In this document: one piece after another, positions 45,575-63,425 of the stretch
Numbering within the stretch: the stretch's first letter is position 1
Layout of the letters: each line of letters opens with the position of its first letter
Assembly: GCA_964580705.1 (NCBI GenBank)
Contig: CAZOKY010000001.1
Span: forward strand, 1,224 to 65,223
Source: Candidatus Micrarchaeota archaeon
GTDB taxonomy: Archaea; Micrarchaeota; Micrarchaeia; Norongarragalinales; Norongarragalinaceae
Direction: 5' to 3'
DNA length: 64,000 nucleotides
Translations under genes and position numbers: made by a program
The notes under the pieces: model-generated
What the model saw: the letters and a program-made list of their open reading frames with translations, nothing else
Database searches by the model: none
What the model was told of the DNA's origin: nothing

Positions 45575-45626
45575 GCGAAAACGAGAAACCGAATTAAGTT
45601 TATCGATTGCGGGAAATAAAAACGAG

Positions 45627-47121: not shown

Positions 47122-47616
47122 TTACCTGTACGATTTCGTGAAACGCGCCCTAGCGCCCGGACCCTTGAACTTCTTCGGCTCAACGCGGCGAGGGTCTTCA
47201 ACGAGCAACGAACGATCGTATTCGATGAGACGCGTCTTCAAATCGTCGTCCCCGCTAGCCGCAACGAGCGCGCGAGCAATCGCGGTGCGCACGGCTTGAG
47301 CTTGCCCCATGCGTCCTCCGCCTCGCACTGCGACGTCTACGTCGTACTGCGCTGAAGATTCGATGAGTTGCAACGGCTCGCTTATGACGGCTCGCTCGAC
47401 GGGCGAGTGGATGGCGGCGAGCGCGAGGCCGTTGATGCGTACGACGCCTTTCCCGGGCTGCGCTGCGGGGCGGATGCTGGCGCGCGCGATCGCTTCCTTG
47501 CGTTTTCCGCGTTGCACGAGCAGTTTCTTCTTTTTTTGCCTCGCCGGTTTTTTCGCGGCGCTTGCAGCGCCTGCAGCGCCCGCGGCGCCGGCTTCAGTTT
47601 TTTTTCTTGCAGCCAT
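47122..47616 (-). CDS. rps9: ribosomal protein S9 with an A/K-rich N-terminal extension
   Basis: S9 C-terminal motifs (GGGRMGQAQA ... RFTKSYR). Confidence 0.9.
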   Translation of the reverse strand: MAARKKTEAGAAGAAGAASAAKKPARQKKKKLLVQRGKRKEAIARASIRPAAQPGKGVVRINGLALAAIHSPVERAVISEPLQLIESSAQYDVDVAVRGGGRMGQAQAVRTAIARALVAASGDDDLKTRLIEYDRSLLVEDPRRVEPKKFKGPGARARFTKSYR

Positions 47617-47670
47617 TAAAAATCAACTCTCAAAACCAACAAACCAAACAAACGAACAGTTTACATTTCC

Positions 47671-48162
47671 TTAATTTTTCGGAGTCCAACCGAGCCTCTC
47701 ACAAATGTCGATCACGCTGACTTTGCTTCGCCCCAGCGCTTCCTGCGTCTTCGGCGGCTTCTCGCGCTTCGCGCCGTGCAATTCGCTCGGCCCCGCGCCG
47801 TAAAAAACGATTATGCGTTTGAACGCGGCGGCGCCGCGCGCGGTGTGCCACGGAAGCATGCCGCGAATCGAGCGCTTGAAAAACAAGTCGGGCCGCCTAG
47901 GCCAGTGAGCACTGTGCTCGGGATTCGCCTTGTCCTGCTGCAAGCGCCTGCGGAAGTATTTGCGAGCGATTTCTTCCGCGTTACCGGAAAAAACCGCTTT
48001 CTCGGCGTTCACGATTCGCACTTCGTTTCCCTGCAAAGCCTCGTGCGCGACGACGGCTGCAAGCCGTCCGACGATCGCGCCTTCAGCATCGTAAACGATT
48101 ATTTTCTTCACTTTGCTTTTGAGTTTGGCGTTACCGAGTTTTTGTCTTCCTTTTTCAGCCAT
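47671..48162 (-). CDS. rpl13: ribosomal protein L13
   Basis: IVYDAEGAIVGRLAAVVA ... VNAEKAV. Confidence 0.9.
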   Translation of the reverse strand: MAEKGRQKLGNAKLKSKVKKIIVYDAEGAIVGRLAAVVAHEALQGNEVRIVNAEKAVFSGNAEEIARKYFRRRLQQDKANPEHSAHWPRRPDLFFKRSIRGMLPWHTARGAAAFKRIIVFYGAGPSELHGAKREKPPKTQEALGRSKVSVIDICERLGWTPKN

Positions 48163-48175
48163 AAAAAACCACGAT

Positions 48176-48538
48176 TTACAAAATTAACCTGACTTTCTTG
48201 CCTTGCGGATTGCGTTCCGCGAGCCGAGCGAGCGGAACCGCGTCGCACTTCGCCTTCTTGAGCTTGATAAGCGCCGTCTTCGACGCCTTGAAGTAACCGA
48301 TTGCGAGCGAGTGCGTAACGTCGCCTTGCGCGAGCAGCTTGCCTGGAAACGCGACGGTTTCGCCTTCCTTCGTGATGACGTTGAGGCGCGACAAATTCAA
48401 TTCGCTTCTCGCCCTCGCGGGAGCGCGCAAACGCTCGGCGCACGCAGTCCAAACCGGAGCGCTGTTCTTGCGCCCAGTTTTCTCGAGCAACGCCACCAGC
48501 TTCACCGTCGATAATGCTTCAGGACCAATACTGCTCAT
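48176..48538 (-). CDS. rpl18e: ribosomal protein L18e
   Basis: L18e sequence; conserved position upstream of L13. Confidence 0.85.
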   Translation of the reverse strand: MSSIGPEALSTVKLVALLEKTGRKNSAPVWTACAERLRAPARARSELNLSRLNVITKEGETVAFPGKLLAQGDVTHSLAIGYFKASKTALIKLKKAKCDAVPLARLAERNPQGKKVRLIL

Positions 48539-48609
48539 TTCTTACCAACTTTCTTTTTCTTTTTTTGTTTTTCTTTTTTTATTTTTTATTTCCGTTTTTT
48601 AATCGTTAA

Positions 48610-48694
48610 TGCAGGGGGAGGGATTCGAACCCCCGAACCCCTAAGGGACAGGCACCTCAAGCCTGCACGTTTGACCAGGCTTCGCTACCCCTGC
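48610..48694 (-). tRNA. tRNA-Leu (GAG), class II with a long variable arm
   Basis: Hand-folded: GCAGGGG acceptor, 3-bp D-stem, anticodon arm CAGGC-UUGAGGU-GCCUG, variable arm UCCCUUAGGGGUUC, T-arm GGGGG-UUCGAAU-CCCUC. Confidence 0.8.
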
Positions 48695-48703
48695 CCATAA
48701 CCG

Positions 48704-49771
48704 CTATTCTTCCTTGTCCTTCCTCGCCTTTGACTCCTTATCCTTCTTCGCCCTGCGCTTGCTCTCCTTCTTTTCCTTCGCCGTCTGTTCGACGAGCTCC
48801 ACTTGATCGAATTGCTCCGCCGGAGCTTCGGCAGCCAACGCCTTCGCCGCCTCTTCTTGCGCGACCACAGCCGCTTCCGCGACCTTAACTTCCTGCGCAG
48901 CGCTCGCCGCCGCAACCGCTTCAGCCGCTGCAACGCGCGCGTCCTCCTCGAGCTTCTCGAGCTTCTTCGGATTCTTCACTCCTTCCTCGACGAACTCGAG
49001 TTTTTCTCCGATCAAACGCAAGCCGCGCTCCAACTGCTCGCTCGCGGAAAGGTTGTTGAACGATTCAACGAAAAAAACGAATTCACCCGGCTTCGGGCGA
49101 ACGGTAATCGCAGCCTTCGGGCACGACTCGACGCAGGATTCGCACAACAAGCATTGTTCCGGCGAAGTCAATTTGATGTGCGGCGAAATTATTTTCACTG
49201 GACAGGCTTTAACGCACTCCCCGCACTTGTCGCACTTGCTTGAAACGTGAAAGTCAGGCATCGCCGAATACGACGCGAGCGCGCTCTGAAATTTAGCGTG
49301 GTTGCGTGCGGCGCCTTGAACCGCAGTCGCCTCAAGCCTTAGTTTCTGGCCTTTGCCTAGGCGCATCAACGGAACGCGTTCGCAAAAAACGCGTATCACG
49401 GGGTCGGAACTCTGCAGTTCCCGCGAGTAAACCGTGCGCGCGGCGTCCTGTGCTTCCGCCTCGAGACTGAACGAGATTTGCGTGCCAGGCGCGACGCCTT
49501 CCTCGAAAGTCAATGGCACGAGCGCCAAACGGCTCGCCACGTATTCGTTGAACAACGGCGACGTGTTCTCGTAAAACGAAATCTCGTCTATCGCGAACGT
49601 CGGAACCTCCGCGTTCAACGTTCTTCGCAAAGCGTTCAAAAAGTGTTCGTCCGCTCCGCTGACTAAAACGCGCAGCTTGTTCGGCTGCGATTCACTTAAA
49701 GCTTCAAACTTCATTTCAACCATCCGCCTTTTTTCCACGCCTTTTTTCAACGCTTTTTCCACGCCGTTCAA
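48704..49771 (-). CDS. rpoD: DNA-directed RNA polymerase subunit D (Rpb3) with a 4Fe-4S domain and a ~100-aa E/A/K-rich C-terminal tail
   Basis: CDKCGECVKACP ... CLLCESCVESCP Fe-S domain and an Rpb3 dimerisation domain. The start may be an internal M (49714/49723). Confidence 0.85.
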   Translation of the reverse strand: MNGVEKALKKGVEKRRMVEMKFEALSESQPNKLRVLVSGADEHFLNALRRTLNAEVPTFAIDEISFYENTSPLFNEYVASRLALVPLTFEEGVAPGTQISFSLEAEAQDAARTVYSRELQSSDPVIRVFCERVPLMRLGKGQKLRLEATAVQGAARNHAKFQSALASYSAMPDFHVSSKCDKCGECVKACPVKIISPHIKLTSPEQCLLCESCVESCPKAAITVRPKPGEFVFFVESFNNLSASEQLERGLRLIGEKLEFVEEGVKNPKKLEKLEEDARVAAAEAVAAASAAQEVKVAEAAVVAQEEAAKALAAEAPAEQFDQVELVEQTAKEKKESKRRAKKDKESKARKDKEE

Positions 49772-49806
49772 AAAACGGTTTTCGGTTTCAGCAAACGCTT
49801 TAAATC

Positions 49807-50376
49807 TTAAACTCTCCTTCCGCGTTTACCGCCCGGACGGCGAGTAGTGTCAGTAGGAATCGGAGTCGCGTCCTCGATTTTACCTATGCGCAAACCCGAA
49901 CGCGCCAACGCGCGAATAGACGCTTGCGCTCCCGAGCCGGGAGTTTTCGAACCGTGTCCGCCGGGCGCGCGCACGCGCACGTGAACGCCCGTAATGCCGC
50001 GTTCCTTCGCTTTTTCGGCGGCTTTGAAAGTCGCCTGCATCGAGGCGTACGGCCCGCCTTCCTCGCGATCCGCTTTCACGATCATTCCGCCGCTGGCAGC
50101 CGAAATCGTTTCAGCGCCGCTCAAATCCGTAATCGTGATAATAGTGTCGTTCTTGCTGGAGTAAATGTGCGCTACGCCCCACAACTCGTGGCGCGAAACA
50201 GGCGCGTAATCGCGGCGAGGCTGAGCCGACGCTTGTTGCGTCGAAGACGCCTGCTGCGCTGACGCTTGCTGCGTTGAAGCCGGAGCTGCTTGCGCTGAAA
50301 GCGCTGCGGGCGCGGCTTTCGTTGCAGCGGGTTGCGCGGCAACCGCTTCCTCAACTTTCTTTTCTTCTTCAGCCAT
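49807..50376 (-). CDS. rps11: ribosomal protein S11 with an A/Q-rich N-terminal extension
   Basis: S11 core ([18 protein letters not shown] ... [13 protein letters not shown]). ATG 50376. Confidence 0.9.
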
Positions 50377-50420
50377 TGAAAACAATCCACTCAACAAACG
50401 GTTAATGAAAACTTAAAAAC

Positions 50421-51050
50421 TCACTTGTTCTCTTCTTTCGTTTCCTCTTTCGCTTCCGAAGGCTTCACTTCCGGCTCTGCTTCGGTTTTCGCTTCGGCCT
50501 TAGGCGTCTCCGGCTTCGCTTCTCCGACTGCGCGGGCGTCACGGGAAGCGGAAGGCGCGGGCGCGTTGCCCGAAACGGGTTTCCCGAACCAGTCAACAAT
50601 GCTTTCCTCGCTGAACTTCACTAAGTACGAAGGAGCGCCGACGCGTTTCGCGTCCACACCCACGTGACCGTGAACGATTAACTGCCTCGCCTGCCTCGTC
50701 GTCTGCGCCAAGCGCTTCTTGAAAACGATTGACTGCAATCGGCGGGCCAAAATGTCGCGAACGTCGAGCGCGAGAATGTCGTCGAGCGTGCAAGCCGGAT
50801 TATTCAACAAAAACGAGCGAACACGCTTCAGCAAGCGTTCCGTCCTCTCTTCGATGTTCTTACCTTTCTTGGAAAGCAGGCGGCGGGCTTCGCGGCGAGT
50901 CTTGCGCAACATCGTGCGCATACGCCAAAGCTCGCGCGAGTTCTTCAACCCGAATTCCTCACGCAACGAAGAATCTTCATCGATGCGCTTGTGCTCCCAC
51001 AATTTTTTCGGGGTTTCGTACTGCTTGCGAGCTTTCTTCGGGTCTCCCAT
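50421..51050 (-). CDS. rps4: ribosomal protein S4 with a C-terminal K/E/A/P-rich tail
   Basis: S4 N-terminal motifs and S4 RNA-binding domain. Confidence 0.9.
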   Translation of the reverse strand: MGDPKKARKQYETPKKLWEHKRIDEDSSLREEFGLKNSRELWRMRTMLRKTRREARRLLSKKGKNIEERTERLLKRVRSFLLNNPACTLDDILALDVRDILARRLQSIVFKKRLAQTTRQARQLIVHGHVGVDAKRVGAPSYLVKFSEESIVDWFGKPVSGNAPAPSASRDARAVGEAKPETPKAEAKTEAEPEVKPSEAKEETKEENK

Positions 51051-51099
51051 TAAAACACAACCTTGAAATCAAAACACTAAAAACTAATTTTTCTTACTT

Positions 51100-51822
51100 T
51101 CATTGCTTCTTTTCTTTTTCCCCGCCTTTCTCCTGAGCGCCGGTTGCCGCAGCGGCTTTCTGCGCCTTCAACGCCTTCTTGAGCACTCCCACCGTCAAAC
51201 CGCTTCGCCCCGTAGTGCGCGAGTGCTGCCCGCGGACGCGTTGCCCGAGTCCGAAACGGTAGCCTTTCCACGAGCGCGTGTTGCGTTCGCCTTCAATGTC
51301 CTGGCGCAACGAAAACTGCAAATCACTCATCGTAAGATGCTTGTCCGTCCCAGCCGCCTTGTCGCGCACGCGATTGAGCTGGAACGAACGAACGCCGTGT
51401 TTTTCCGGGAAGCGGACGATTTCCTCGATTGCGGCGAGTTGCTCGTCCTTCATTTCGCCAACCCACTCGCTTTCCTTCAACCCCAATTCTTTGCGGGCTG
51501 CACGCGCGACGTTCGACGCGATAGCGTGCCCGACTCCCTTGATTTTGCGGAGCGCGCTGCGCAGGGGAGTATGTCCTTCGATGTCTTTCCCGAGAATGCG
51601 GACGATTCCTTTAAAGTCCTTGCTTTCCTTCCCCGTCATCTTGACGGTAATTCCTTTGTAAGCCTGCGGACCGCGCGTTGCGCCGGCGGCAGCTGCCGCT
51701 TGCGCGGCTTTCGCTTCCTGTTTCGAACCCGGCTTCGTGATGACGGCGCGCGATTGCTCGGCGGCTTTCGCTGGCGCTGCAGGTTTTTGCGATTGATTCT
51801 TCGTTTTGTCGTCAGCCAACAC
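51100..51822 (-). CDS. rps13: ribosomal protein S13, with possible N- and C-terminal extensions
   Basis: S13 core begins near FKGIVRILGKDIEG. The track start is GTG 51822; an alternative ATG at 51639 would remove the N-terminal extension. Confidence 0.85.
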   Translation of the reverse strand: MLADDKTKNQSQKPAAPAKAAEQSRAVITKPGSKQEAKAAQAAAAAGATRGPQAYKGITVKMTGKESKDFKGIVRILGKDIEGHTPLRSALRKIKGVGHAIASNVARAARKELGLKESEWVGEMKDEQLAAIEEIVRFPEKHGVRSFQLNRVRDKAAGTDKHLTMSDLQFSLRQDIEGERNTRSWKGYRFGLGQRVRGQHSRTTGRSGLTVGVLKKALKAQKAAAATGAQEKGGEKEKKQ

Positions 51823-51860
51823 GAATCACTCTGAACGCTGAATAACGAATAAAAGCAAGC

Positions 51861-52047
51861 GCCGGGACTGAGAAATCCGCGACTCTCGCGATCGTTCTGT
51901 TTTTCGATCTTTTTTCGAGAGAAGTTTCGAACTCAGGAGGCCCTTACGGGCCACAAGCTCCCCGGAAATCAAGACGGATACGCCTGTTTTTCAGGCAGTC
52001 CGAAAAAAGTTTTCCAGGCCTGCGCATTACCGCTCTGCCATCCCGGC
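51861..52047 (-). tRNA. putative tRNA-Ser (GGA) interrupted by up to three introns (anticodon loop, variable region, T-loop)
   Basis: Hand-folded. 5' GCCGGGA-UG-GCAG-AGCGGUA-AUGC-G-CAGGC-CUGGAA[14 nt]U-GCCUG. Variable-arm hairpin GGCCC-GUAA-GGGCC. T-stem halves CUGAG..CUCAG separated by ~50 nt. 3' acceptor UCCCGGC. A palindromic TATA-like gcgctttaaaaaagcg is centred ~29 nt upstream of the 5' end. Confidence 0.35.
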
Positions 52048-52068
52048 GCAAACAATGTTTTGCGCCCA

Positions 52069-52084
52069 GCGCTTTAAAAAAGCG
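52069..52084 (-). promoter_or_regulatory. TATA-box-like element upstream of the putative tRNA-Ser
   Basis: gcgctttaaaaaagcg, centred ~29 nt from the proposed tRNA 5' end. Confidence 0.3.
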
Positions 52085-52230
52085 TTGGCGAAAAGCAGAA
52101 CGCAATGCTTCCTTTGAGCCGCGCGGCACGCACGAAGCGGGCTCGCGTTCCCTCGAAAGAGTAATTATTTCCCGCGCGGAGCTTTAAAAAGCCTTCGAAA
52201 GAGAGGAAAACCAAAAACTAAAGTAAACAA

Positions 52231-53166
52231 CTAGAACGCGTGAATCACGCGGGAAACGTCGAACGCGAGGCCGTTCCTCCGCCCCTTGATTTCATCGCTC
52301 GAAAGCAGCGCGTCCGCGAAACAGACGAGTTCGCCTTTCAAACTCAAAATCTGCACCGCCTCACCCTTCGCGATTCCTTCGTCAAGCGAGCAAATACCGG
52401 GAATCGCGAGGTGCGCTCCCGTAGTAATCGGGCGCAACGCGTCGTCGTCCGCGACTACTCGCTTCAAGTGAATCGCTTCCTCTAAAGGCAAAACGCATTC
52501 GCGCAACGGCGCCTCGTTCTTTTTCTTTCCGTTCTCCTTCGCGAGCCAAACGCGGTCGCTCAACTCTTGAAGAGTAACGCACTGTTCTTCCGTAAAGGTA
52601 GCCGCTTCCGTCCTGCGCAGCTCAGCCATTACCGCCGCGTCGTTCACGACTTCCCCTAAATCGCGGACTAGAGCGCGAACGTAAAACCCCGCTTCCACGT
52701 CGCATTGAAACAACGCGAATCTTTCATTCACTTCAAGCAAGTCGAGGGAAAAAACCTCTCTTATCCTGAGGCGTTTCGCTACCGCGCTCGCTAGCGGCGG
52801 CGTCTGATAAATTTTTCCTCGGAAGCGCGAAAACGTTTTCTCCAGCGTGGCGGCCTTGATTGGTTTTTCAAACCGCGTGATGCAAACGTACTTCTTGCGT
52901 TGCTTCGACAGGAAGCCGCTGGCTTTGCACGCGTCGTTCAGCATCACGGGCAATACGCCGCTGACGTCGGGATCCAGCGTCCCGCTGTGCCCGGTTTTCT
53001 GCACGCCGAAACCGCTCAGGATTTTGCGTACGAAAGCGCTCGTCTCGTGCGAAGACGGACCGCAAGGCTTGTCGATTAACGCGACGCCGAAACGCAGGTA
53101 ATCGTTAAGCGGGCGCTCGCGCGGCGCAACGCCTAAAACGCCTTCCTGCTTGCGGAGAGTAATCAT
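52231..53166 (-). CDS. cbf5: tRNA/rRNA pseudouridine synthase Cbf5 (TruB family, with PUA domain)
   Basis: TruB catalytic motif (HSGTLDPDVSGVLPV) and a C-terminal PUA domain. Confidence 0.9.
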   Translation of the reverse strand: MITLRKQEGVLGVAPRERPLNDYLRFGVALIDKPCGPSSHETSAFVRKILSGFGVQKTGHSGTLDPDVSGVLPVMLNDACKASGFLSKQRKKYVCITRFEKPIKAATLEKTFSRFRGKIYQTPPLASAVAKRLRIREVFSLDLLEVNERFALFQCDVEAGFYVRALVRDLGEVVNDAAVMAELRRTEAATFTEEQCVTLQELSDRVWLAKENGKKKNEAPLRECVLPLEEAIHLKRVVADDDALRPITTGAHLAIPGICSLDEGIAKGEAVQILSLKGELVCFADALLSSDEIKGRRNGLAFDVSRVIHAF

Positions 53167-53202
53167 TTCGAATCGTTTTTAATTCAAGCAACGGCTTAAT
53201 TA

Positions 53203-53676
53203 ATGCTTATGCAACCGAAAAGAGTTGAACCTCTCGGACCAATCGAACAGCTCGTCGAAGGCCACCGTTTCTTGGGAACTGAGTTTTTTCATTATTCAGT
53301 CGTTCCTCCTCGCCCCGACACCAACGATTTGACGAGAATACGGCTGGCAATCGCAGCAAGAGGTGACTGGGACCACGCGAAGTTGATGGAACAAACGTAC
53401 TACAAGCGAATCGGAATTGAAGTCAAAGATTCGGATACGGAAAAACAGACGAACCACAAACGAAACGGAGCCGAAGTTGAAGAGCCGTCTGCGGAAATAG
53501 TTCTCCAGACGAAGCTAAGCCAAAAAGAAATAGACGAGATAATGACACAATTAAAAATAAAGAAACGCGAAATAGGCGAAGCAATGAAACCGGAAACAAA
53601 AAACCCACAAAAAGACGAAACAGCAATACAATTAGAAATAAGGAAACAGTTAGAACTAAGGAGCCGCCGAAACTAG
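53203..53676 (+). CDS. hypothetical protein with a K/E-rich C-terminal half
   Basis: ORF on the opposite strand within an r-protein region; AT-shifted composition; no motif recognised. It may not be a real gene. Confidence 0.25.
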   Translation: MLMQPKRVEPLGPIEQLVEGHRFLGTEFFHYSVVPPRPDTNDLTRIRLAIAARGDWDHAKLMEQTYYKRIGIEVKDSDTEKQTNHKRNGAEVEEPSAEIVLQTKLSQKEIDEIMTQLKIKKREIGEAMKPETKNPQKDETAIQLEIRKQLELRSRRN

Positions 53677-53840: not shown

Positions 53841-53873
53841 AAAACAAAATCACCTTAAACGCTTCAAACGCTT

Positions 53874-54572
53874 TCAACGTTTTTTCTTTTTCCCAGCTTG
53901 TTTCTTAATCTTTTGCTTCTTCAACCGCTTAACGAGTTTGCGTTTGAGAGTAATTTTCTTTCCGCGCTTCCTTTTAATTCTTGTCTTAGAGACAAAACCA
54001 GCTTTTTCCCGTGCCAGCTTCACAATCGCTTCAACAACTTGCTTCGCGTTATTACGCTCGCCGTCGATTACGACGCACCCGCGCGGCAAACGCTTGACGT
54101 CCACGCCGTACAACCGACGGTAACGCAACGCGTTCTCCACGTCGCGACGCCGCGTGAAAGCCAGCGAATCGCGAAACGCGACGCCGTCCTCCTTCGCGCG
54201 CCTCTTCGCGCGCACCCGCAGCGGCACGTCCAGCCACACTTTCAAGTCGAACGCGGGCGGACGCAACGCGCCGCACCTGCGCCACACGCGCGAATCGTCG
54301 AGCCACACCGCAAGGCGCGAGGCGATGACGCAGGCGCGCGAGCGCGCAGCCAAATCGCATTGCTTGCGTTCGATGCGCAAATCGTGCTTCGGGAAATCGC
54401 GGAGCGCCAGTTCCTGCATTCGACCGAGCGATACGCCTCGCTCGCGGGCGAGAGTGCGGAGAGTGTAATTCAATTGCTTGAGCTTGAGCTTGCGGCTTGA
54501 GAGGCGCGCAGCAGTCGTCGCTCCGCAACCGCTGAAACCCGAAATGGCTATTCGCACGACAACCCCCACCAA
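53874..54572 (-). CDS. cmk: archaeal-type cytidylate kinase with a Lys-rich C-terminal tail
   Basis: P-loop ISGFSGCGATT and archaeal Cmk sequence. Confidence 0.8.
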   Translation of the reverse strand: MVGVVVRIAISGFSGCGATTAARLSSRKLKLKQLNYTLRTLARERGVSLGRMQELALRDFPKHDLRIERKQCDLAARSRACVIASRLAVWLDDSRVWRRCGALRPPAFDLKVWLDVPLRVRAKRRAKEDGVAFRDSLAFTRRRDVENALRYRRLYGVDVKRLPRGCVVIDGERNNAKQVVEAIVKLAREKAGFVSKTRIKRKRGKKITLKRKLVKRLKKQKIKKQAGKKKKR

Positions 54573-54598
54573 CTAACCGACGATTTAAATTTAGCGCT

Positions 54599-55570: not shown

Positions 55571-56998
55571 TCAACGCATGATCTTGTTGAGAACGGGATA
55601 CATTTCAAACAACTGCTGCTTCGCGAGATCCTCGTAAAAACGGTAAATGATTCCGACGGTGAGCAGAATTCCCGTGCCCGTCCCCAGCGCACCCGTGATG
55701 TCCGCGAACCACGCCAGAACACCCACGAAAATACTGCCTAAAATCGTGATTATGGGAATATACCGCTCGAGAATCTTTTCCGTCACGCGCGGGTCCTGCC
55801 TGAAGCCGGGAATCTGCAACCCCGCCCGATTCAACTGCCCGGCAACCTCCTTCGCGCCCATACCCGTACTCTCAATCCAAAACCAACCGAAAACAACGCA
55901 CAAAAGCACCAAGACGACTCCGTAAACCAACGCGTGCAAAATCTCGTTCGGCTGGGAAATGAATTGCAAATACGTTTGGTAACCCCCCATCAGCAACGGA
56001 GACGGAAGCGAGTTAACGTAGTAAGCGAACCCGCTGATCGGACGATTATCCTGGTACTCCCCGAGAAAACCAGCGCGGTGAGTCATGCTCCCATCTATGG
56101 GCGCGGAAGTAAACATGCCGACTAGCTGGATGTTGAGGATGACTGCGCTCGCGAGAATAACGGGAATGTTCGAGACGTACAGGAACTTTATCGGGTAACG
56201 CGCCCCCAAACCGCGCGCTCTTCCGTAAGCGAGCGGCAGCTCTATCTTCATTCCTTCCACGTAAACGACGACTAGAAAGACGACGATCGTGAAAACTATC
56301 GGGACTACGCTCCAAATCGCGTTCAACACGTCGCCGCTCGCGAGAGCGTACAACGCGCCGGGAATGAGTCCAGCGGGAATACCCGTCGCGCCCGGCACGA
56401 GGCTCAACGAACCGATGAAAACGGATTGGCAGACGCCCGCCGCGATGAACAACGATATACCCGAACCGATTCCGTACTTCTGCACGACTTCATCGAGGTA
56501 AAGCAGTATCACGGAAGCGAGAGCGAGTTGTAATACGACGATGATTTGCGTCAATAAAAACGAGCCGAAAAGCATTCCCGATTGCGACGCGGGCAAATAA
56601 CCGCTGAAAACGTATATTCCCGCCTCGAAAAAACTGAGCAGAACCGCGAGAAGCTTTTGGAGGCCTTGAAAACGCTTTTTGCCTTCAGGATCGCTCAAGT
56701 CCACGTTGATGAGTTTCGCGCCGACCGCGAGTTGAAGGAAAATGCTGGCGAGCACGATGGGGCCGATTCCCGCGGTAATGAGCGTGCCCATGCGGCTGCC
56801 GAGCAGAATGTCGAGGCGCTCGAAACTCGTTATGCGCGAGTAATCCGCTCCGATCGGGTAAATCTGCCCGAGAATGAAGAAGACGAGCAGCACGGCTGCG
56901 GTCCACAAAAGTTTTTGCTTTAGCGGCGCGGCGCGTTCGGCGCGCTTTACTTCAGGCAGAATGCTCAGCAGCGGATCTAAAGCGCTCCAAAAGCCCAT
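55571..56998 (-). CDS. secY: preprotein translocase SecY
   Basis: 10-TM SecY sequence; conserved position after L15. Confidence 0.95.
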   Translation of the reverse strand: MGFWSALDPLLSILPEVKRAERAAPLKQKLLWTAAVLLVFFILGQIYPIGADYSRITSFERLDILLGSRMGTLITAGIGPIVLASIFLQLAVGAKLINVDLSDPEGKKRFQGLQKLLAVLLSFFEAGIYVFSGYLPASQSGMLFGSFLLTQIIVVLQLALASVILLYLDEVVQKYGIGSGISLFIAAGVCQSVFIGSLSLVPGATGIPAGLIPGALYALASGDVLNAIWSVVPIVFTIVVFLVVVYVEGMKIELPLAYGRARGLGARYPIKFLYVSNIPVILASAVILNIQLVGMFTSAPIDGSMTHRAGFLGEYQDNRPISGFAYYVNSLPSPLLMGGYQTYLQFISQPNEILHALVYGVVLVLLCVVFGWFWIESTGMGAKEVAGQLNRAGLQIPGFRQDPRVTEKILERYIPIITILGSIFVGVLAWFADITGALGTGTGILLTVGIIYRFYEDLAKQQLFEMYPVLNKIMR

Positions 56999-57115
56999 GA
57001 TTCAAAACCCACTTCGAAAAATTTAAGCTCGCAACGGAATAAAAAAACAAAAAAAACTGAAAACGCGGACGAAAATAAACGCAGACTGATTTAAAAAACC
57101 GCGTTGAAACGCTTT

Positions 57116-57206
57116 GAAACGGAAAGAAACGGAAAGAAACGAAAAGAAAAGGAATTAAAAGGAAAAAAGAAAAAAGGAAAAAAGAAAAAAGGAAAAAAGA
57201 AAAAAG
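57116..57206. repeat. purine-rich tandem repeats in the secY upstream region
   Basis: gaaacggaaa x3, then ggaaaaaagaaaaaa x3. Confidence 0.5.
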
Positions 57207-57213
57207 CAAAACG

Positions 57214-57645: not shown

Positions 57646-57690
57646 AAAACAAAAACCCCTTTAAACGTCAAAACGCCAAATTCAACAACG

Positions 57691-58038
57691 TCAAATCATC
57701 GCTTTAATCAAGTCGTTTATTTTCTCGCCGCGGTAGCCGAGCGCGCCTTTCGGGTAGTGCTGGCGAATCCCGCCTTTGAAGCCGCCGCGAGGAGGCTGCA
57801 AACGGTAAACGACTTTTTCTTCTCCAAACTTCTTCTTCAACAACGCAATCGTCTCGTCGCTCGCCTCACCCCAAGAAGCGTAATCGCGAATCTTCACGAG
57901 CATTCCGGTAGTCGAAACGTTTTGAGGAACGAGCACGCAATGATTCTTGCGAGTCAAACGAAACGCCCGAAAAATGCTTTCAACTCGCTCGCGCGTCCTC
58001 ATGACGCCTCGAATCCTTACGACGGCAAACAAAACCAC
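57691..58038 (-). CDS. rpl30: ribosomal protein L30
   Basis: FAVVRIRG ... uL30 sequence. GTG start. Confidence 0.9.
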   Translation of the reverse strand: MVLFAVVRIRGVMRTRERVESIFRAFRLTRKNHCVLVPQNVSTTGMLVKIRDYASWGEASDETIALLKKKFGEEKVVYRLQPPRGGFKGGIRQHYPKGALGYRGEKINDLIKAMI

Positions 58039-58070
58039 GAAAACTCAACTCCCTCATTAAAACCAAAAAA

Positions 58071-58955
58071 TCATTTTTCAACTGCAGAATCCGATTCGGG
58101 TTTTTGAACCGCGTCGGAAACGCTCGACTGCCCAGCAACGCCTTCCGCGCCGGCCGCGGCGGCTCCGCCAGCTGCTTCGCCAACTGCTTCGCCAACGGCG
58201 CCGGCTTGCTCTTCGCCTGCTTCGTCAGCCTCGCTTTCGCTGGAACCGTCGGTTCCCTTCTTCAAGCTGTTAAGCGAATTCAAAGCGTTGATCGTCGCCA
58301 AAATCATGTTGAGCACGTTTCGGGTGCGCCCCTTCGCGAAACTCCAAGCGTCGTGAACTCCCGCCAGCTCCAAAACTTTTTTCGCCGTACCGCCAGCCAC
58401 GAGTCCGACTCCTCGCGGCGCCGGCTTGATCCAAATGTGAGTGCTGCCGCTGTTTCCATGTACTTCGCGAAGAACGGTGTGAGGTTGTCCGCAACCGCAC
58501 TCCCACGAGCCGCAACCGAGGCTCACTCGCACTAGGTTTTTCTTGGCGTCCAACACGGCTTCGCTGATCGCGTCCCTGCTTTCAGGCGCCTTGCCCATGC
58601 CGACGCCTACGTAACCGCTTCTGTTGCCGACGAGCACGACGGCGCGCATCTGCATTTTGCGGCCGCAACCCGTCATTCTTTGCGTGCTTGAAACTTCCAT
58701 GACTTCTTCCGCGAGCTGTCCTTTAAGCAAGAAATCGATTATTTGCGGTTCGAGAATCTTGCGCCCGCTGTTGAAAACCGCTTCAAGCGACGAATACTCG
58801 CCCGCAACTACTTTTTTCCCTAACTCGGTCCGCGGAACCCACTCGGCTTGAGCCGGTTCCTCGCGGCGCCTGCGGAAACCGCCTTCTCGGCCGCCCGGCC
58901 TTCCGCCCCTGCCGCGTTCATCGCTTTTTCCGCGACCGCGTTTTGTAAAAGCCAA
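58071..58955 (-). CDS. rps5: ribosomal protein S5 with an RGG-rich N-terminus and a ~60-aa acidic G/A/E-rich C-terminal tail
   Basis: S5 dsRBD plus C-terminal domain (VVLVGNRSGYVGVGMGKA). TTG start. Confidence 0.85.
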   Translation of the reverse strand: MAFTKRGRGKSDERGRGGRPGGREGGFRRRREEPAQAEWVPRTELGKKVVAGEYSSLEAVFNSGRKILEPQIIDFLLKGQLAEEVMEVSSTQRMTGCGRKMQMRAVVLVGNRSGYVGVGMGKAPESRDAISEAVLDAKKNLVRVSLGCGSWECGCGQPHTVLREVHGNSGSTHIWIKPAPRGVGLVAGGTAKKVLELAGVHDAWSFAKGRTRNVLNMILATINALNSLNSLKKGTDGSSESEADEAGEEQAGAVGEAVGEAAGGAAAAGAEGVAGQSSVSDAVQKPESDSAVEK

Positions 58956-58982
58956 TCAACAACACGCTCCCTTTAACTTTTT

Positions 58983-59045
58983 TTAAACTTTTTTAAGTTT
59001 TTTTAACTTTTTTTAACTTTTTTTCTGTTTTTGGTAAACGCTTAT
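58983..59045. repeat. phased 9-10-nt A/T-tract tandem repeat between L18 and S5
   Basis: (ttttttaac / ttttttaag)n, about 6 copies. Confidence 0.5.
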
Positions 59046-59534
59046 CTTGTTCTTCGCTTCCGCGAACTGTTTCTGCGCGGCTTCGTTCAAGTGTTTTCCT
59101 TCAATTCGCTCCGCGCTCGGAATCTTGTCCGGGGAAAACGGCGCCTTGAGTCCCGCGTCAACCGCGCCCTTCAACGCCGCGAAAACGACTGCGCCTTTCG
59201 AAGCAGTCTGCAAACCCAAGTCGAGCACGAACTCGCGCACCCCGCTCGCCGCGGCGCGTTTCGCCGCAAGCATGCCCGTGAGGTAAGCGCTCGGCGTGTT
59301 GCACTTGCCGTCGAAACCGAATTCCTTCAATTCGGAAGAACAAGCGCTTGCAACTACCGCGTCGCCCGCTTCGCGGAAATCGCAGAATTGGGCGTAAACG
59401 AACTGGTTCGTCTTGCGAACTACGAGGCGCGTCTTGCCGCTCTTCAGCAACGCGAGGCGCTTCTCGTAATCCGTCTTGTTCTCGCGCCTGCGGCGGAAGT
59501 GAACCGAATACAAAGGACCGAAAGCTTTAGCCAT
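59013..59534 (-). CDS. rpl18: ribosomal protein L18
   Basis: uL18 sequence. Confidence 0.9.
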   Translation of the reverse strand: MAKAFGPLYSVHFRRRRENKTDYEKRLALLKSGKTRLVVRKTNQFVYAQFCDFREAGDAVVASACSSELKEFGFDGKCNTPSAYLTGMLAAKRAAASGVREFVLDLGLQTASKGAVVFAALKGAVDAGLKAPFSPDKIPSAERIEGKHLNEAAQKQFAEAKNKISVYQKQKKS

Positions 59535-59589
59535 AATTCATCAACATTTTCCGATTTCCGTTTTTTTTCAATTTTTTCAATCTTTAAAT

Positions 59590-60015
59590 TCAACGCTTCT
59601 CCAAGCCGCGGACAAACTCCGCCAACTGCCTCTTGTTCTTGAAGAAACCTCCTTTAATCATTCTGTAAGCGCGCCGGTAATCCTTGCGTTCAACCTTTCC
59701 TTTCCGCAACGCCAACGCGCGCCTCAAACAGCGGACGAGCGCGATCCATTCGCTTTTCCCGCGCGACGCAACGCTTCCCTTCACGCTTCCCGCGCCCCGC
59801 CTGCGCCCCGAGTGCGTGCGTTGTTGCTTGAAACGGGCTTTCGCGCGCCCCGAACCCTTCGCTTTCACGACTGCCACCGCGCCTTCCGAGAAAAGCGTGC
59901 GCACGTCGTCGCGAGTCAACGCCTCGTTCGCGCGCTTCGCGTCGACGACGCGTATGCGCGATTCGCCTACGCCGGCTACGGCGGCGGCGAGCCTTCGAAC
60001 GGTTTTAAGCGTCAT
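59590..60015 (-). CDS. rpl19e: ribosomal protein L19e
   Basis: L19e sequence. Confidence 0.9.
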   Translation of the reverse strand: MTLKTVRRLAAAVAGVGESRIRVVDAKRANEALTRDDVRTLFSEGAVAVVKAKGSGRAKARFKQQRTHSGRRRGAGSVKGSVASRGKSEWIALVRCLRRALALRKGKVERKDYRRAYRMIKGGFFKNKRQLAEFVRGLEKR

Positions 60016-60094
60016 GAATCATTTTCACTTCCTCGTTTCAACACGCAATGCTTTTGCGTTTTCTCTTCAATAAATTTCTTTTTACAAAATCTTT

Positions 60095-60439
60095 TTACAA
60101 AACCTTGACGTCGAGCTGTACGGCGCGGGCGCGAATCGCTGCGCGCTTGCGTTTGCCCACGCACGCCGCAATGCGCGCGGCATCCGTAACGCAGTCGAGT
60201 TTTTCCAAATCCGCTTCGTTGAAAACGCGTATCTCGCGCAAACCGCACGGGTGCAAGCCGCGAGTCGCGCGCGCGTTCCTGTAACCGATGCTCGGCGAAG
60301 CTCCAAAACCCCACTTGTAAATGCGTTGCTTGTTGTCGATTCCGCGCGGCTTGCGCCACCCCGTGACGGTCACGCGCCTTTTCAAGTGCACGTTCTGCCT
60401 CTGGAATTTCGGATGCTTTTTCTTGACTATCTTGTTCAT
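60095..60439 (-). CDS. rpl32e: ribosomal protein L32e
   Basis: KKKHPKFQRQ ... ATG 60439. Confidence 0.85.
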   Translation of the reverse strand: MNKIVKKKHPKFQRQNVHLKRRVTVTGWRKPRGIDNKQRIYKWGFGASPSIGYRNARATRGLHPCGLREIRVFNEADLEKLDCVTDAARIAACVGKRKRAAIRARAVQLDVKVL

Positions 60440-60464
60440 GAAAACCACTTAAAAACCACTTTTT

Positions 60465-60968
60465 TTACTCCGAGTAATAAACGCCGTCCTGGAAGACGCG
60501 AACGTCGCGCGCCTTGATTTTCGTGGCGCGGACGATGTTGTTCGCCGTTTGCCCGACGTCTTCCTTGTCCTTGCCTTTAACCGTGACAATGTTTCCCGCC
60601 ACGCTCACGGACGCGTCGCCGCAAACTCTTGCTTTTCGCGAGAGTTTCTCGCCCAAAAAATTCTTTATCGCGACGTCTTTGCCTTTGACTTCTATTGAAA
60701 TCGGGAAGTGCGCGAAAACTACTTCCAAACGCTTCTCGAAACCTTTAGTCAAACCGGCAGCCATATTGCGCGCGTGCGCTTCGACCGAGTGCGCGGCAGC
60801 CCTCAACGCGCGCGTTTCCTTGCGCCTGGGCTTGACTACGAGCTCGCCGTTTTCGACTTTCACGTCCAGCAAACGCGAATTGAATTTCTTTTCGAGTGCG
60901 CCGCCGCTCGCTTTAACTCGCAAGACGTCGCCGGCGACTTCGATTGAAACCCCTTCAGGAACCTTCAT
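60465..60968 (-). CDS. rpl6: ribosomal protein L6
   Basis: Two uL6 repeats. ATG 60968 (MKVPEGV). Confidence 0.9.
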   Translation of the reverse strand: MKVPEGVSIEVAGDVLRVKASGGALEKKFNSRLLDVKVENGELVVKPRRKETRALRAAAHSVEAHARNMAAGLTKGFEKRLEVVFAHFPISIEVKGKDVAIKNFLGEKLSRKARVCGDASVSVAGNIVTVKGKDKEDVGQTANNIVRATKIKARDVRVFQDGVYYSE

Positions 60969-61018
60969 TTTACAAAAAACCTTTTTCAAAACCGTTAAAC
61001 AAAAACCGTTTCAGCAAA

Positions 61019-61402
61019 TCAATAAACGAACGCTATCAAACGGCCGCCCGTCTTCGCCTGCTTCGCCGCGCGGTGCGTAAGCAAACCCTTCGGCGTCGAA
61101 ACGACGAGCAACCCGACGTCCCTCGACGGGAGAAAACGCTGTTCGTACTTCTCGAAGTCCACGAACTTGACGGCGAAACGCGGCTTCACCACGCCGCACT
61201 CGTTGATTTTGCCGAGCAGCTTCACGATGAATTCCCCGCTTTTTCCGTCGTCCACGAACTCGAACTCGCCGAGATAACCGTTCTGCTGCAAAAGCAACAA
61301 CGTCTCGCGCACGAGCTTCGACGCGGGCCTAATCCGCGTTTCGTTCGCTCCCTTCGCTTCCGCTACCTTGATCGAGTTCAACGCGTGAGCCAAAACATCC
61401 AT
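61019..61402 (-). CDS. rps8: ribosomal protein S8
   Basis: uS8 sequence. Confidence 0.9.
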   Translation of the reverse strand: MDVLAHALNSIKVAEAKGANETRIRPASKLVRETLLLLQQNGYLGEFEFVDDGKSGEFIVKLLGKINECGVVKPRFAVKFVDFEKYEQRFLPSRDVGLLVVSTPKGLLTHRAAKQAKTGGRLIAFVY

Positions 61403-61453
61403 TTCAAACCAAATCCTTCCAAATATTTCATTAACCGTTTTTTGTTCCTTCGT

Positions 61454-61615
61454 TTAATAGTATTTCTTGAAGCCGATGCTGTTGGCGTGCTCTCGGAAGC
61501 AACGCCTGCACAAGTACAAATCGTACTTGCGGATCAAGCCGTGCACGTTGCCGCAAATGCGGCACTTCCTGACGCCGCGATGCTTTCTCTTCGACTCCAG
61601 TTTTTGAACCAACAA
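61454..61615 (-). CDS. rps14: ribosomal protein S14 (zinc-binding type Z, ~53 aa)
   Basis: My own translation, in a different frame from track ORF 61431..61697: [53 protein letters not shown], with the C..C ... C..C zinc motif. TTG start; there is no in-frame ATG. Confidence 0.75.
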
Positions 61616-61641
61616 ACCACCTGAAAAACATTAAAGGAAAA

Positions 61642-62169
61642 TCATTCTTCTTCTTTTGAAACGACTGAAACGCCGAACGCCTTCGTAACGAAATCAATTG
61701 CCTCGCGCTTGGAAACGCGTTGCTTCCTGCTGAGCCTGCGCTTCGCGATGCGCCTGCGGCCGACTCGCGCGCCCGCCTTGCTGAGCGTCAAGCAAACGTC
61801 GAAGCCTATCATTCCCAGCGAAGGGTCGTACTTCATCCCCGGCAAGTCGATGTACTCCTTCACGCCGAACGCCACGTTTCCATAGTCGTCGAACGAGCGC
61901 TCGCTGATTTTTCCGTCGACTACTTCAAGCGCCTTCTTGAGGAACGCCGCCGCCTCCGTTCCGCGCAGCGTGACTTTCACCCCGATTTCGTCGCCCTTGC
62001 GGACGTTGAACGCGGGATTGCGGGCGCGCGCTTTAGTCGCAACGGCTTTTCGCCCCGTAATGCGTTCGAGAAGCGAGCGCGAATTCTCCAGCTTCTGCCC
62101 CGCTTCGCCCGAACCAATGTTGAGCGTGACTTTCTCGAGAAACGCCTCGCTCATCGTTTTTCCAGCCAT
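61642..62169 (-). CDS. rpl5: ribosomal protein L5
   Basis: uL5 sequence. ATG 62169; the track N-terminus comes from an A-rich tract. Confidence 0.9.
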   Translation of the reverse strand: MAGKTMSEAFLEKVTLNIGSGEAGQKLENSRSLLERITGRKAVATKARARNPAFNVRKGDEIGVKVTLRGTEAAAFLKKALEVVDGKISERSFDDYGNVAFGVKEYIDLPGMKYDPSLGMIGFDVCLTLSKAGARVGRRRIAKRRLSRKQRVSKREAIDFVTKAFGVSVVSKEEE

Positions 62170-62222
62170 GAAAACCAAAACCAAAAACAAAATCAAAAAC
62201 AAAAACTTTTTCGAAAAACCGT

Positions 62223-62933
62223 TTACGCGGCTTGCATCGACTTCACGAATTCTTCATCCACGACGAAAACGTAATCCTTCAGCGTCACGAGTTCCGACCC
62301 GCCTTCGACGACGAGCTTCGCGTTCCTGCCTTCAGCGGACACGAGCCGTCCCATGGCGCCCGAGTGTTTTCCGTGCGAGACGTAACACCACGCGTTCTTC
62401 TCGAGTTTGAGGAAACCCTTGAGTTCCTGCTTGGGAACCCCGATTTTAACGGTGTCGCCAGTCTTGAAGCGGTCCTCTTCTTTCTCAATCAAGATGCTGC
62501 GGCCGTCGTGCAAAACGAGTTGCACGCGTCCTTTCTTCACCGTGTTCTTGCCGTTCACGCGGCAGTACTTCACGTTCGCCGCATCGCCGGAAATCGCCTT
62601 CAAGTCGAGCTTGTTCTTTCGAAGCAAAACGCGGTAAAACACGTTCACGAGAGGAATTGACACGACGCTCATCAAACCGACGGGAAAACCGGCGTCGCGC
62701 ACCACTCTGCCATCCACGAGAACGCTTTTCTCGTTGAAGACTTTCTTCGCTTCGCGCGCGTCGCCCGCCAAGCGCAACGCATCGCGCAAAACCATGAGCA
62801 ACGGCATTGATTCTGCAAGCGCGCCCGGTCCCGCGACCGCTTTCTTCACGAATTTGGTTTCCTTTCGGGAAACGCGCAACGCGATTGGCGCCGCGAGAGC
62901 CTTCAAGTGCCTTGCACAACCGTGTCCAGCCAT
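62223..62933 (-). CDS. rps4e: ribosomal protein S4e
   Basis: S4e sequence with a KOW region. Confidence 0.9.
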   Translation of the reverse strand: MAGHGCARHLKALAAPIALRVSRKETKFVKKAVAGPGALAESMPLLMVLRDALRLAGDAREAKKVFNEKSVLVDGRVVRDAGFPVGLMSVVSIPLVNVFYRVLLRKNKLDLKAISGDAANVKYCRVNGKNTVKKGRVQLVLHDGRSILIEKEEDRFKTGDTVKIGVPKQELKGFLKLEKNAWCYVSHGKHSGAMGRLVSAEGRNAKLVVEGGSELVTLKDYVFVVDEEFVKSMQAA

Positions 62934-62942
62934 AAAAACAAA

Positions 62943-63425
62943 TCACTTCTTCAATTCTTCAATCTTCGCTACATTCGACGCCGCATTCGTTGCCGCGTTC
63001 GCCACCGCATTCGTCGCCGCGTTCGACGCCGCGGGTTTAACCGCTTCGAACGCCTTCTTTGCTTCTTGCTTTTTTTCCTTGCGCTTCGGAGTGCGGGCAG
63101 CCAACTCGATTATCAAGAGCTTGCTCGCGTGAATCGGAACCGGAACTTCCTTGCCGCTTTGCTTCTTGCGCACGATTCCTTCGATGACCGCGCTGGAATC
63201 CTTCAAGTAAACGCTGAAAACTTTGCCTTCCTTTTTCTTGAAGGAACCGCGCAACACGCGCACTTTGTCTCCTTTCTTGAGTTGCACGCTGCGCTTCTTC
63301 ATCTTCGCCCTCAACTCTTTCGACAAGTGCGCAGCCGCGAGCTTTTGCCTAGCGTGAAGCGGAGCCTCGTAAAGCGCCAAACGCTTTTTGCGCGGCTTCG
63401 CGGAAAACGGATTCAAAAACCTCAT
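62943..63425 (-). CDS. rpl24: ribosomal protein L24 with an A/N/T-rich C-terminal tail
   Basis: KOW motif (KKGDKVRVLRGSFKKKEGKV). ATG 63425. Confidence 0.9.
   Translation of the reverse strand: MRFLNPFSAKPRKKRLALYEAPLHARQKLAAAHLSKELRAKMKKRSVQLKKGDKVRVLRGSFKKKEGKVFSVYLKDSSAVIEGIVRKKQSGKEVPVPIHASKLLIIELAARTPKRKEKKQEAKKAFEAVKPAASNAATNAVANAATNAASNVAKIEELKK

Follow-up and report, generated by a model that had tools for sequence, protein, structure and literature searches.

The 64-kb window analysed here, by which we mean the whole stretch of DNA examined and on which all coordinates are counted, comes from a contig of a Micrarchaeota archaeon (DPANN), and it contains a ribosomal-protein operon in which 9 of 23 proteins carry genuine low-complexity termini that ordinary archaeal orthologs lack. 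These proteins are S9, L13, RpoD, S11, S4, S13, Cmk, S5 and L24, with additions of 15-88 residues each, and their tails total about 516 residues and take up 9.5% of the 16.3-kb span. The start-site and reading-frame evidence confirms, at the sequence level, that the tails are genuine and translated and are not artefacts of start-codon choice. We consider it probable (roughly 0.75) that these translated tails were generated by slippage, are weakly constrained and are tolerated at protein ends, with the load of each genome set by a lineage-level propensity. The genome belongs to a small and streamlined DPANN archaeon, yet about one tenth of its core ribosomal operon goes to repeat-like tails.

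The operon lies on the minus strand and is of the canonical archaeal type according to the open reading frame (ORF) listing and the Pfam and NCBIfam matches. Its order is L14, L24, S4e, L5, S8, L6, L32e, L19e, L18, S5, L30, L15, SecY, EMC3/DUF106, L34e, Cmk, Cbf5, S13, S4, S11, RpoD, tRNA-Leu, L18e, L13 and S9. Both canonical contexts, S13-S4-S11-RpoD-L18e-L13-S9 and L14-L24-S4e-L5...S5-L30-L15-SecY, are present, and the same order is found in two close relatives, L091 and L093. The nearest named relatives of SecY (55571-56998, minus strand) are metagenome-assembled genomes (MAGs) labelled 'Candidatus Micrarchaeota' and 'Norongarragalinales', at 61-85% identity. We compared the window with 80 Micrarchaeota loci around SecY, adding L091 and L093 for the S13-S9 half (L093 and L002 derive from one MAG). 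Close relatives of RpoD were obtained from the protein database and from exact-protein look-ups; a scan of metagenome contigs for RpoD relatives gave a best identity of only 56-64% and none closer. The extensions were delimited against full-length archaeal NCBIfam equivalog models, as follows.

47530..47616, minus strand: uS9 N-terminal extension, residues 1-29 (MAARKKTEAGAAGAAGAASAAKKPARQKK), basic and Ala/Gly/Lys-rich; gene 47122-47616; residues 30-164 align to model positions 2-134, overhang +28.
48109..48162, minus strand: uL13 N-terminal extension, residues 1-18, Lys-rich; gene 47671-48162; residues 19-158 align to model positions 4-145, overhang +15-18.
48707..48970, minus strand: C-terminal tail of RpoD (RNA polymerase subunit D), 88 residues, an Ala/Glu-rich stretch and then a Lys/Glu-rich end; gene 48704-49714, start M20; residues 25-267 of the 355-residue ORF align to model positions 6-263 of 266, overhang about +85-88.
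50194..50376, minus strand: uS11 N-terminal extension, residues 1-61, Ala/Gln/Ser/Pro-rich with QQAS repeats; gene 49807-50376, start M8; residues 69-196 of the 196-residue ORF align to model positions 5-132, overhang +61 from the true start.
50424..50582, minus strand: uS4 C-terminal tail, residues 157-209, Pro/Glu/Ala/Lys-rich; gene 50421-51050; residues 1-156 match model positions 1-156 of 179 and are followed by 53 residues, against 23 in the model and unrelated to it.
51103..51159, minus strand: uS13 C-terminal tail, 19 residues, Lys/Ala/Glu-rich, reaching 17-19 residues past the model end.
51631..51819, minus strand: uS13 N-terminal extension, residues 1-63, Ala/Lys/Gln-rich; gene 51100-51819, TTG start, beginning LADDK; residues 65-221 of the 240-residue ORF align to model positions 4-155, overhang +61 (N) and +17 (C).
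53877..54020, minus strand: C-terminal tail of Cmk (cytidylate kinase), 48 residues, Lys/Arg-rich, net charge +25; gene 53874-54557; residues 7-184 of 232 align to model positions 2-165 of 169, overhang +44-48.
58074..58253, minus strand: uS5 C-terminal tail, residues 235-294, acidic (Ala/Gly/Glu/Ser), net charge -12; overhang +51-60; residues 35-234 align to model positions 6-204 of 213.
58854..58955, minus strand: uS5 N-terminal head, residues 1-34, rich in Arg and Gly (RG-rich; 10 Arg, 9 Gly) and immediately N-terminal to the conserved core; gene 58071-58955, TTG start; overhang +29-34.
62946..63074, minus strand: uL24 C-terminal tail, 43 residues, Lys-rich and then the repeat ASNAATNAVANAATNAASNVA; gene 62943-63425; residues 12-121 of the 164-residue ORF align to model positions 1-110 of 116, overhang +37-43.

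The overhangs place tails on all nine proteins where the initial annotation had located them. Only its length of about 100 residues for the RpoD tail does not hold, the overhang there being some 85-88. Each of the nine cores matches an archaeal NCBIfam model along practically its full length. Three first-model scores fall just under the curated cutoffs (S9, 140.7 against 147; L13, 125.3 against 146; S13, 143.1 against 159), which is no surprise in DPANN sequences, given their divergence. L13 does pass another model, the archaeal/eukaryotic TIGR01077 (117.0 against 98.9), while S9 and S13 pass no archaeal equivalog and both clear the Pfam gathering scores. An entropy scan flags every tail as low-complexity. 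Ala makes up 22% of the tail residues, Lys 15%, Glu 12% and Leu 2.3% (9.8% in the cores), and Trp and Cys are absent. Solved structures agree with the models in spanning the cores only: archaeal uS5 chains (202-236 residues) align just to residues 37-232 of the 294-residue protein, and archaeal uS11 chains have 126-141 residues, leaving an N-terminal overhang of 58-64 here. The earlier statement that typical archaeal orthologs are without the tails is thus borne out.

The extensions had also been described as pervasive, which stands for the nine operon proteins (about 40%) and not for the remainder. We found no overhang beyond the NCBIfam models in L18e, L18, L19e, L32e, L6, S8, L5, S4e, L14, Cbf5, NusA or P1. 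SecY has no extension, L15 (no NCBIfam match) is of normal length with a C-terminal Pfam match, and the C-terminus of L34e is longer by only about 24 residues, which are not of low complexity. One of the remaining proteins, uL30 (57691-58038, minus strand), is even shortened within an operon whose other ribosomal proteins are lengthened: it has 115 residues against 151-156 in archaeal models, and its match is split in two stretches.

Candidate start sites were scored by their Shine-Dalgarno (SD)-like duplex energy with the canonical archaeal anti-SD sequence, for which internal start-like codons give a background mean of -4.0 kcal/mol (sd 2.5). The extended starts of the operon score -6.7 (S9), -5.1 (L13), -5.5 (S11 M8), -5.3/-6.3 (S13) and -10.1 (S5), and the in-frame starts near the cores -0.2 (S9 GTG34), -0.3 (L13 GTG18), -0.3 (S11 TTG72, the sole internal candidate in that gene) and -1.7 (S5 TTG76). 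The latter codon is the next in-frame start of S5 and lies 41 residues into the conserved core. S13 has an in-frame Met three residues ahead of its core (Met62, ATG62), which scores -4.0, equal to the background mean; upstream of it close relatives keep the LADDK cap and the AYKGITVKMTG junction, and in other relatives the Met is replaced by Lys. Proteins outside the operon give a similar picture: S7 has one start codon (-7.7) and no internal start ahead of the core, the Alba ATG at codon 5 scores -10.7 against -2.6 for the internal ATG65, and the GTG start of a presenilin/SPP homolog scores -10.0. Ribosome-binding-site-like signals at internal conserved starts and relatives without tails had been named at the outset as signs of mis-called starts. 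The internal candidates range from -0.2 to -1.7 (S13 M62, -4.0) against -5 to -10 for the extended starts, and the relatives keep the tails.

On these duplex energies and the catalogue of in-frame starts we rejected mis-called starts as an explanation, apart from overshoots of 4-19 codons in the longest-ORF calls of RpoD, S11, Cmk and L24 (overshoots in this range also occur in EMC3, L5 and L6). The corrected starts are RpoD M20 (49714), S11 M8 (50376), Cmk V6 (54557) and L24 M5 (63425). RpoD M20 scores -9.3 and agrees with the database gene call P0121 and with all homologs. The 19 codons upstream of it (49715-49771, minus strand) are open and contain a period-13 repeat (49725-49765), a period that is not a multiple of three; they are consistent with a non-coding leader, and this case calls for caution with longest-ORF starts in this genome.

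The reading frame of the tails tells the same. Not one of the 516 tail codons is an in-frame stop, while the two alternative frames contain 5 and 20 stops, and the C-terminal tails are independent of start choice in any case. Identical proteins recur in independent assemblies, and independent gene callers return extended proteins for L091 and L093 (S13, 237-238 residues; S4, 206-212; S11, 183-196; RpoD, 320-341; L13, 164-175; S9, 161-168). Without the extensions, gaps of 90-190 nucleotides (nt) would open in an otherwise tightly packed operon.

Several of the extensions are widely distributed among Micrarchaeota. Almost every one of the 21-30 Micrarchaeota loci compared has those of S11, S13 and S9, in sequences that are not conserved, and the tails of relatives are invariably rich in A, E, K, P, Q and T. 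The lengths compare as follows.

S11, N-terminal: relatives 11-113 residues in 28 of 28 loci, median 34; window 61.
S13, N-terminal: relatives, median 41 residues; window 63.
S9, N-terminal: relatives, median 20 residues; window 29.
S4, C-terminal: relatives 9-90 residues; window 53.
S5, C-terminal: relatives 0-76 residues (acidic tails of 0-80 residues being widespread in Micrarchaeota uS5); window 60.
Cmk, C-terminal: relatives 6-53 residues, basic; window 48.
L24, C-terminal: relatives up to 33 residues; window 43.

The window stands at the 81st-100th percentile for eight of the nine tails. Tails are also present in a locus labelled 'Candidatus Iainarchaeum'. Three features are restricted to the clade of the window, namely the RpoD tail, the RG-rich S5 head and the L13 extension. 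The RpoD tail is found only in the five closest homologs (320-352 residues, the remaining homologs having 200-283), and the L13 extension is shared only by the closest relatives, L091 and L093, more distant Micrarchaeota beginning at the core. The view of the initial annotation that the tails are lineage-specific is therefore upheld in a graded form: variable tails on S11, S13, S9, S4 and S5 are phylum-wide, and the small clade of the window lies at the upper extreme and is alone in having the RpoD tail and the RG-rich S5 head. As for the 'proteome feature' of the initial annotation, the one 64-kb window is what the present analysis covers. Absence from typical archaea likewise holds, but relatives do have tails, which amounts to a Micrarchaeota-wide tendency.

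Two trends across genomes were observed. Tail Ala makes up 24% in loci with a G+C (GC) content of at least 0.54 and 12% in loci with GC below 0.48, with Lys at 15% and 19%, respectively. Tail lengths co-vary between genomes (mean pairwise Spearman rho 0.156, reached in 0 of 1000 permutations). Taken together, the Ala-GC trend and the co-varying lengths point to a genome-level propensity, and not to nine independent adaptations. We also considered GC as the driver of tail length and rejected it; the correlation is weak to moderate and noisy for N-terminal extensions (rho 0.46-0.54) and lacking for C-terminal tails, and GC explains composition better.

Among close relatives every extension is shared, with conserved caps and junctions and variable interiors. 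Conserved N-terminal caps include MAARKK (S9), LADDK (S13) and MAE..KGRQKLGNAK, and conserved junctions include AYKGITVKMTG and PRRDYAP..RHELWGV. The RpoD tail has the conserved motifs NPKKLEKL and FDQVELVEQTAKEKK, the QSSVSDA motif of the uS5 C-terminal tail is conserved within the close clade, and the S13 C-terminal tail is nearly identical among close relatives (median of the relatives past the same point, 17 residues). The motifs MAARKK, LADDK, QSSVSDA (S5) and FDQVELVEQTAKEKK (RpoD) may act as specific contact sites. Charge is kept by position, the S5 C-terminal tail being always acidic and the S9 and Cmk tails always basic.

Nei-Gojobori proportions of nonsynonymous (pN) and synonymous (pS) differences between the window and the CAZWIQ MAG are pN 0.22 and pS 0.62 in the tails and pN 0.10 and pS 0.53 in the cores, giving rough dN/dS values of 0.20 and 0.12. 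The L091 comparison agrees, and across comparisons tail pN is 0.22-0.35 and tail pS 0.62-0.71, with core pN at 0.10-0.12. These values show the amino-acid sequence of the tails to be under apparently weaker yet real purifying selection. Gap columns number 109 in the tails and 5 in the cores, though the cores have threefold more codons. When the nucleotide sequences are aligned without regard to frame, 48 of the 66 internal gap runs have a length divisible by three, and the rest are mostly compensating pairs. Selection visibly maintains the frame, keeps hydrophobic residues out and preserves the sign of the charge position by position, and a few short motifs are retained too.

Several of the tails contain in-frame tandem repeats, which we located with Tandem Repeats Finder.

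33125-33174: P0 tail, period 9.
34026-34069: L1 tail, period 9.
47558-47589: S9 tail, period 9, GAA peptide.
50246-50281: S11 tail, period 15, QQAS(A/S).
50434-50457: S4 tail, period 12.
58162-58196: S5 tail, period 12, AVGE.
62972-63032: L24 tail, period 12/24, 5 copies, NAAT/NAVA.

The L24 repeat block of 19-22 residues (57-70 nt) is absent in relatives at 81-83% SecY identity and hence is a recent in-frame expansion. Replication slippage would be the obvious source of such repeats. Repeats are found in the spacers too. The L15-SecY spacer (57116-57211) holds a dense purine-rich tandem repeat, AAAAGGAA, in about 8 copies with nested periods of 7, 10, 15, 22 and 30, and similar repeats rich in A or T are found in further spacers (48550-48591, 58972-59024 and 62171-62206), so slippage-prone DNA is common outside coding regions as well.

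These observations suggest a scheme for the origin of the tails. Replication slippage, with occasional shifts of start or stop codons, would lead to a steady gain and loss of short repeats at protein ends, and ends protruding from the ribosome or the polymerase are presumably exposed, in which case additions would do little harm. A propensity at the level of the lineage, either mutational or due to relaxed or positive selection, would then set the tail load, with the clade of the window near the top. The action of most tails is probably generic. The basic Lys/Arg/Gly tails (S9, L13, S13, Cmk and the S5 head) would make non-specific contacts with rRNA or other nucleic acids or behave as chaperone-like segments, and the acidic or Ala/Glu tails (S5 C-terminus, S4, RpoD and S7) would serve as solubilising or spacing 'bristles'. 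The initial annotation proposed that the tails may affect ribosome surface properties or phase behaviour; the observations that bear on this are composition and predicted disorder.

Structure prediction with AlphaFold covered S5 and RpoD, from alignments of 38 and 32 sequences, respectively. The S5 head (residues 1-40) and tail (235-294) show no secondary structure and a predicted local distance difference test score (pLDDT) of 37-55 (head about 50), and both are probably disordered. For the RpoD tail the prediction gives two long helices (249-295 and 300-335), with pLDDT 85-91 at about 250-290 and 60-81 later on, which would suit a single alpha-helix (ER/K-type) or coiled-coil extension. It has 24 Ala, 17 Glu and 15 Lys in 88 residues, the first part being by composition more Ala/Glu-rich than classically ER/K. 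The tails therefore do not look uniform: most look disordered, and the RpoD tail looks like an Ala/Glu/Lys helix. Disorder is thus predicted for both S5 tails (low pLDDT, coil) and not for the helical RpoD tail.

Several points weigh against the slippage scheme. The high-confidence RpoD helix, together with the conserved motifs of that tail, suggests a specific function over a passive tail. The solvent exposure of the tail-bearing termini is something we take from general knowledge of ribosome structures. The cross-locus correlations are not corrected for phylogeny, and they use N-terminal extension lengths taken from the furthest start codon; aligning low-complexity sequence biases pN and pS, the latter being close to saturation as well. 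On the side of translation, several extended starts, at -5 to -6.7, exceed the background (mean -4.0) by a modest margin only, and the internal Met62 of S13 is formally possible as a second start.

An alternative that we regard as unlikely is that the tails are adaptive modules, comparable to those of eukaryotes, each selected for a role of its own in additional protein-protein or protein-rRNA contacts, in assembly, in compensating reduced rRNA or lost proteins, or in condensates. The same termini are extended throughout the phylum, motifs are conserved among close relatives and tail dN/dS of about 0.2 is far under 1. Moreover, the RG-rich S5 head sits at the same terminus as the extension of eukaryotic uS5/Rps2, the RpoD tail is confidently predicted as a long helix, and a reduced genome devotes some 9.5% of the operon to such sequence. 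However, no sequence conservation extends past the closest clade, and tail lengths in related genomes span the range of about 0 to about 100 residues, from which it follows that the cores function without tails. Recent repeat expansions differ even among close relatives, composition follows genome GC, and lengths co-vary across unrelated proteins including Cmk, which indicates a genome-level cause.

More doubtful still, in our opinion, is the bolder proposal of an independent 'eukaryotisation' of the small-subunit surface in Micrarchaeota and perhaps in neighbouring DPANN lineages. The long disordered tails on uS4, uS5, uS7, uS9, uS11 and uS13, a coherent set at the head and near the sites of mRNA entry and exit, and including the Rps2-like RG-rich head of uS5, would then form a functional layer, for example in assembly or chaperoning, hibernation or condensates, or interaction with host-derived factors in these obligate symbionts, instead of being tolerated repeats.

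It is very improbable that the tails are purely neutral junk, that is, unconstrained repeat expansions that persist through slow removal with no selection on the peptide. Rapid turnover, repeats, GC-tracking composition and the lack of long-range conservation would fit such an origin, but tail pN (0.22-0.35) is clearly under pS (0.62-0.71), caps and junction motifs are conserved, the charge character is kept by position and hydrophobic residues are excluded. Finally, an annotation artefact, in which mis-called upstream starts, frameshifts from sequencing or assembly, or read-through lengthen proteins that are in truth of normal length, could draw on the 4-19-codon overshoots, on the S13 Met ahead of the core and on the L13 extension missing in all but the closest relatives, but it is hardly credible given SD-like motifs at the extended starts and not at the internal candidates, S5 and S7 without a start codon between the extended start and the core, C-terminal tails that are start-independent and recur in frame in independent assemblies and relatives, indels in frame with pN below pS, and the gaps of 90-190 nt that trimming would leave.

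Slippage-generated and tolerated tails, as we prefer to see them, represent a known kind of protein evolution, namely lineage-specific low-complexity extension of ribosomal proteins, in a new example; in our full-text literature searches we found no account of such low-complexity tails on ribosomal proteins from Micrarchaeota or DPANN. The closest analogue is the set of eukaryote-specific ribosomal-protein extensions, above all that of uS5/Rps2, which are likewise unstructured terminal additions to the same universal proteins. HMMER aligns residues 6-228 of the window uS5 (294 residues) to positions 34-247 of the human uS5 chain (293 residues), and the RG head is aligned to the N-terminal region of eukaryotic uS5. 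Solved eukaryotic uS11 chains have N-termini that are longer than the archaeal ones and shorter than that of the window. The yeast Rps2 extension is a site of arginine methylation and of binding by both a chaperone and an importin (PMC13627120). The RG head is missing in most Micrarchaeota and in solved archaeal uS5 and is confined to the closest clade; hence it is not the Rps2 extension by descent, and its likeness is, as judged from these sequences, convergence. Eukaryotic extensions also differ in being far less variable, much of each window tail is simple repeat, and with no nucleus here there can be no role in import.

Other known systems resemble the tails in part. In high-GC bacteria, actinobacterial HupB and similar nucleic-acid-binding proteins carry Ala/Lys/Pro-rich tails like those of histone H1. 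Some archaeal histones have Lys-rich tails (PMC6136690, PMC11764897). Such tails are likewise lineage-wide, repeat-like, basic or Ala-rich and tied to GC, and the Alba, Cmk, S9 and S13 tails of the window are of that character; yet they belong to another phylum and other proteins, and the S5 C-terminal, S4, S11, S7 and RpoD tails are acidic or neutral. Low-complexity insertions caused by nucleotide bias are genome-wide in Plasmodium falciparum in the form of Asn-rich tracts (PMC7534687). Their residue types also follow base composition and arise by repeat expansion, whereas the tracts of the window are confined to termini and are not found within domains, in a genome that is small and otherwise compact.

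The archaeal stalk proteins P0 and P1 have a flexible hinge, rich in Ala, Glu and Lys, that shows the same composition and predicted flexibility, and the window P1/P0 provide the canonical version, AEAKKEEKKDEKSEAEKEAEAAEGLAALFG. However, all archaea have such hinges, and these terminate in a factor-binding peptide that is conserved, whereas the tails are lineage-specific and have no conserved terminal peptide. The stalk itself shows a peculiarity. P0 (L10; 33115-34014, minus strand) ends in a Pro/Ala repeat (...PAAPATPAVPAAPAAPTQ) without the C-terminal factor-binding peptide GLAALFG, which is retained by the adjacent P1 (32764-33078, minus strand), and the P0 of L091 (19139-20035) is without it too. 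The stalk may therefore offer fewer factor-binding tails than usual.

That the tails are real matters for the choice of start sites in DPANN genomes and for the trimming of ribosomal-protein alignments. In structures of DPANN ribosomes they would probably be invisible or form novel contacts. The natural series of tail lengths, from about 0 to about 100 residues, could show how disordered ribosomal-protein extensions arise, a process studied mainly in eukaryotes, and specific roles, if true, would make them a convergent parallel to the eukaryotic extensions.

Extensions also occur on proteins outside the operon span, where model overhangs confirm all four cases named in the initial annotation.

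6082..6222, plus strand: presenilin/SPP homolog, N-terminal extension, 47 residues, Lys-rich, net charge +14; Pfam SPP domain from residue 48.
8474..8629, plus strand: uS7, N-terminal extension (the 'poly-Ala' one), about 52 residues, Glu/Lys/Ala-rich with a nine-Ala run; model aligns from residue 58.
24444..24680, plus strand: Alba, N-terminal extension, about 75-79 residues, Thr/Glu/Arg/Ser-rich; Alba model covers residues 84-170.
34021..34119, minus strand: uL1, C-terminal tail, about 33 residues, NSQ/NPQ repeats; model ends at residue 212 of 245, overhang +31.

In L091, the uL1 tail is different in sequence and similar in length.

A few other features of the locus were recorded. The genes adk and rpl14e, whose usual archaeal places are after secY and after cmk, respectively, are missing from the operon cluster. 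We considered whether the Cmk tail could be a fused or degenerate ribosomal protein such as L14e and rejected this, no Pfam or NCBIfam match being found past the kinase core. Between cmk and cbf5 lies an antisense ORF of 157 residues (53203-53676, plus strand) with no Pfam match and with a C-terminal half rich in Lys, Glu and Gln; L091 has antisense ORFs of 120 and 153 residues at this position too. Structured RNAs or other elements hidden in the tail regions were also considered and rejected, an Rfam scan of the whole window at gathering thresholds having detected just four tRNAs. The tRNA-Leu(GAG) (48610-48694, minus strand) is inside the operon, 10 nt past the RpoD stop codon and ahead of L18e. 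A 110-nt tRNA (25980-26089, minus strand), presumably intron-containing, is detected by Rfam and missed by ARAGORN. Between a tRNA-Pro/tRNA-Gly pair (45503-45700) and the S9 end of the operon there is a free-standing ORF of 362 residues (45729-46817, minus strand) with similarity to LAGLIDADG_3-like homing endonucleases, which lies outside any intron or intein.

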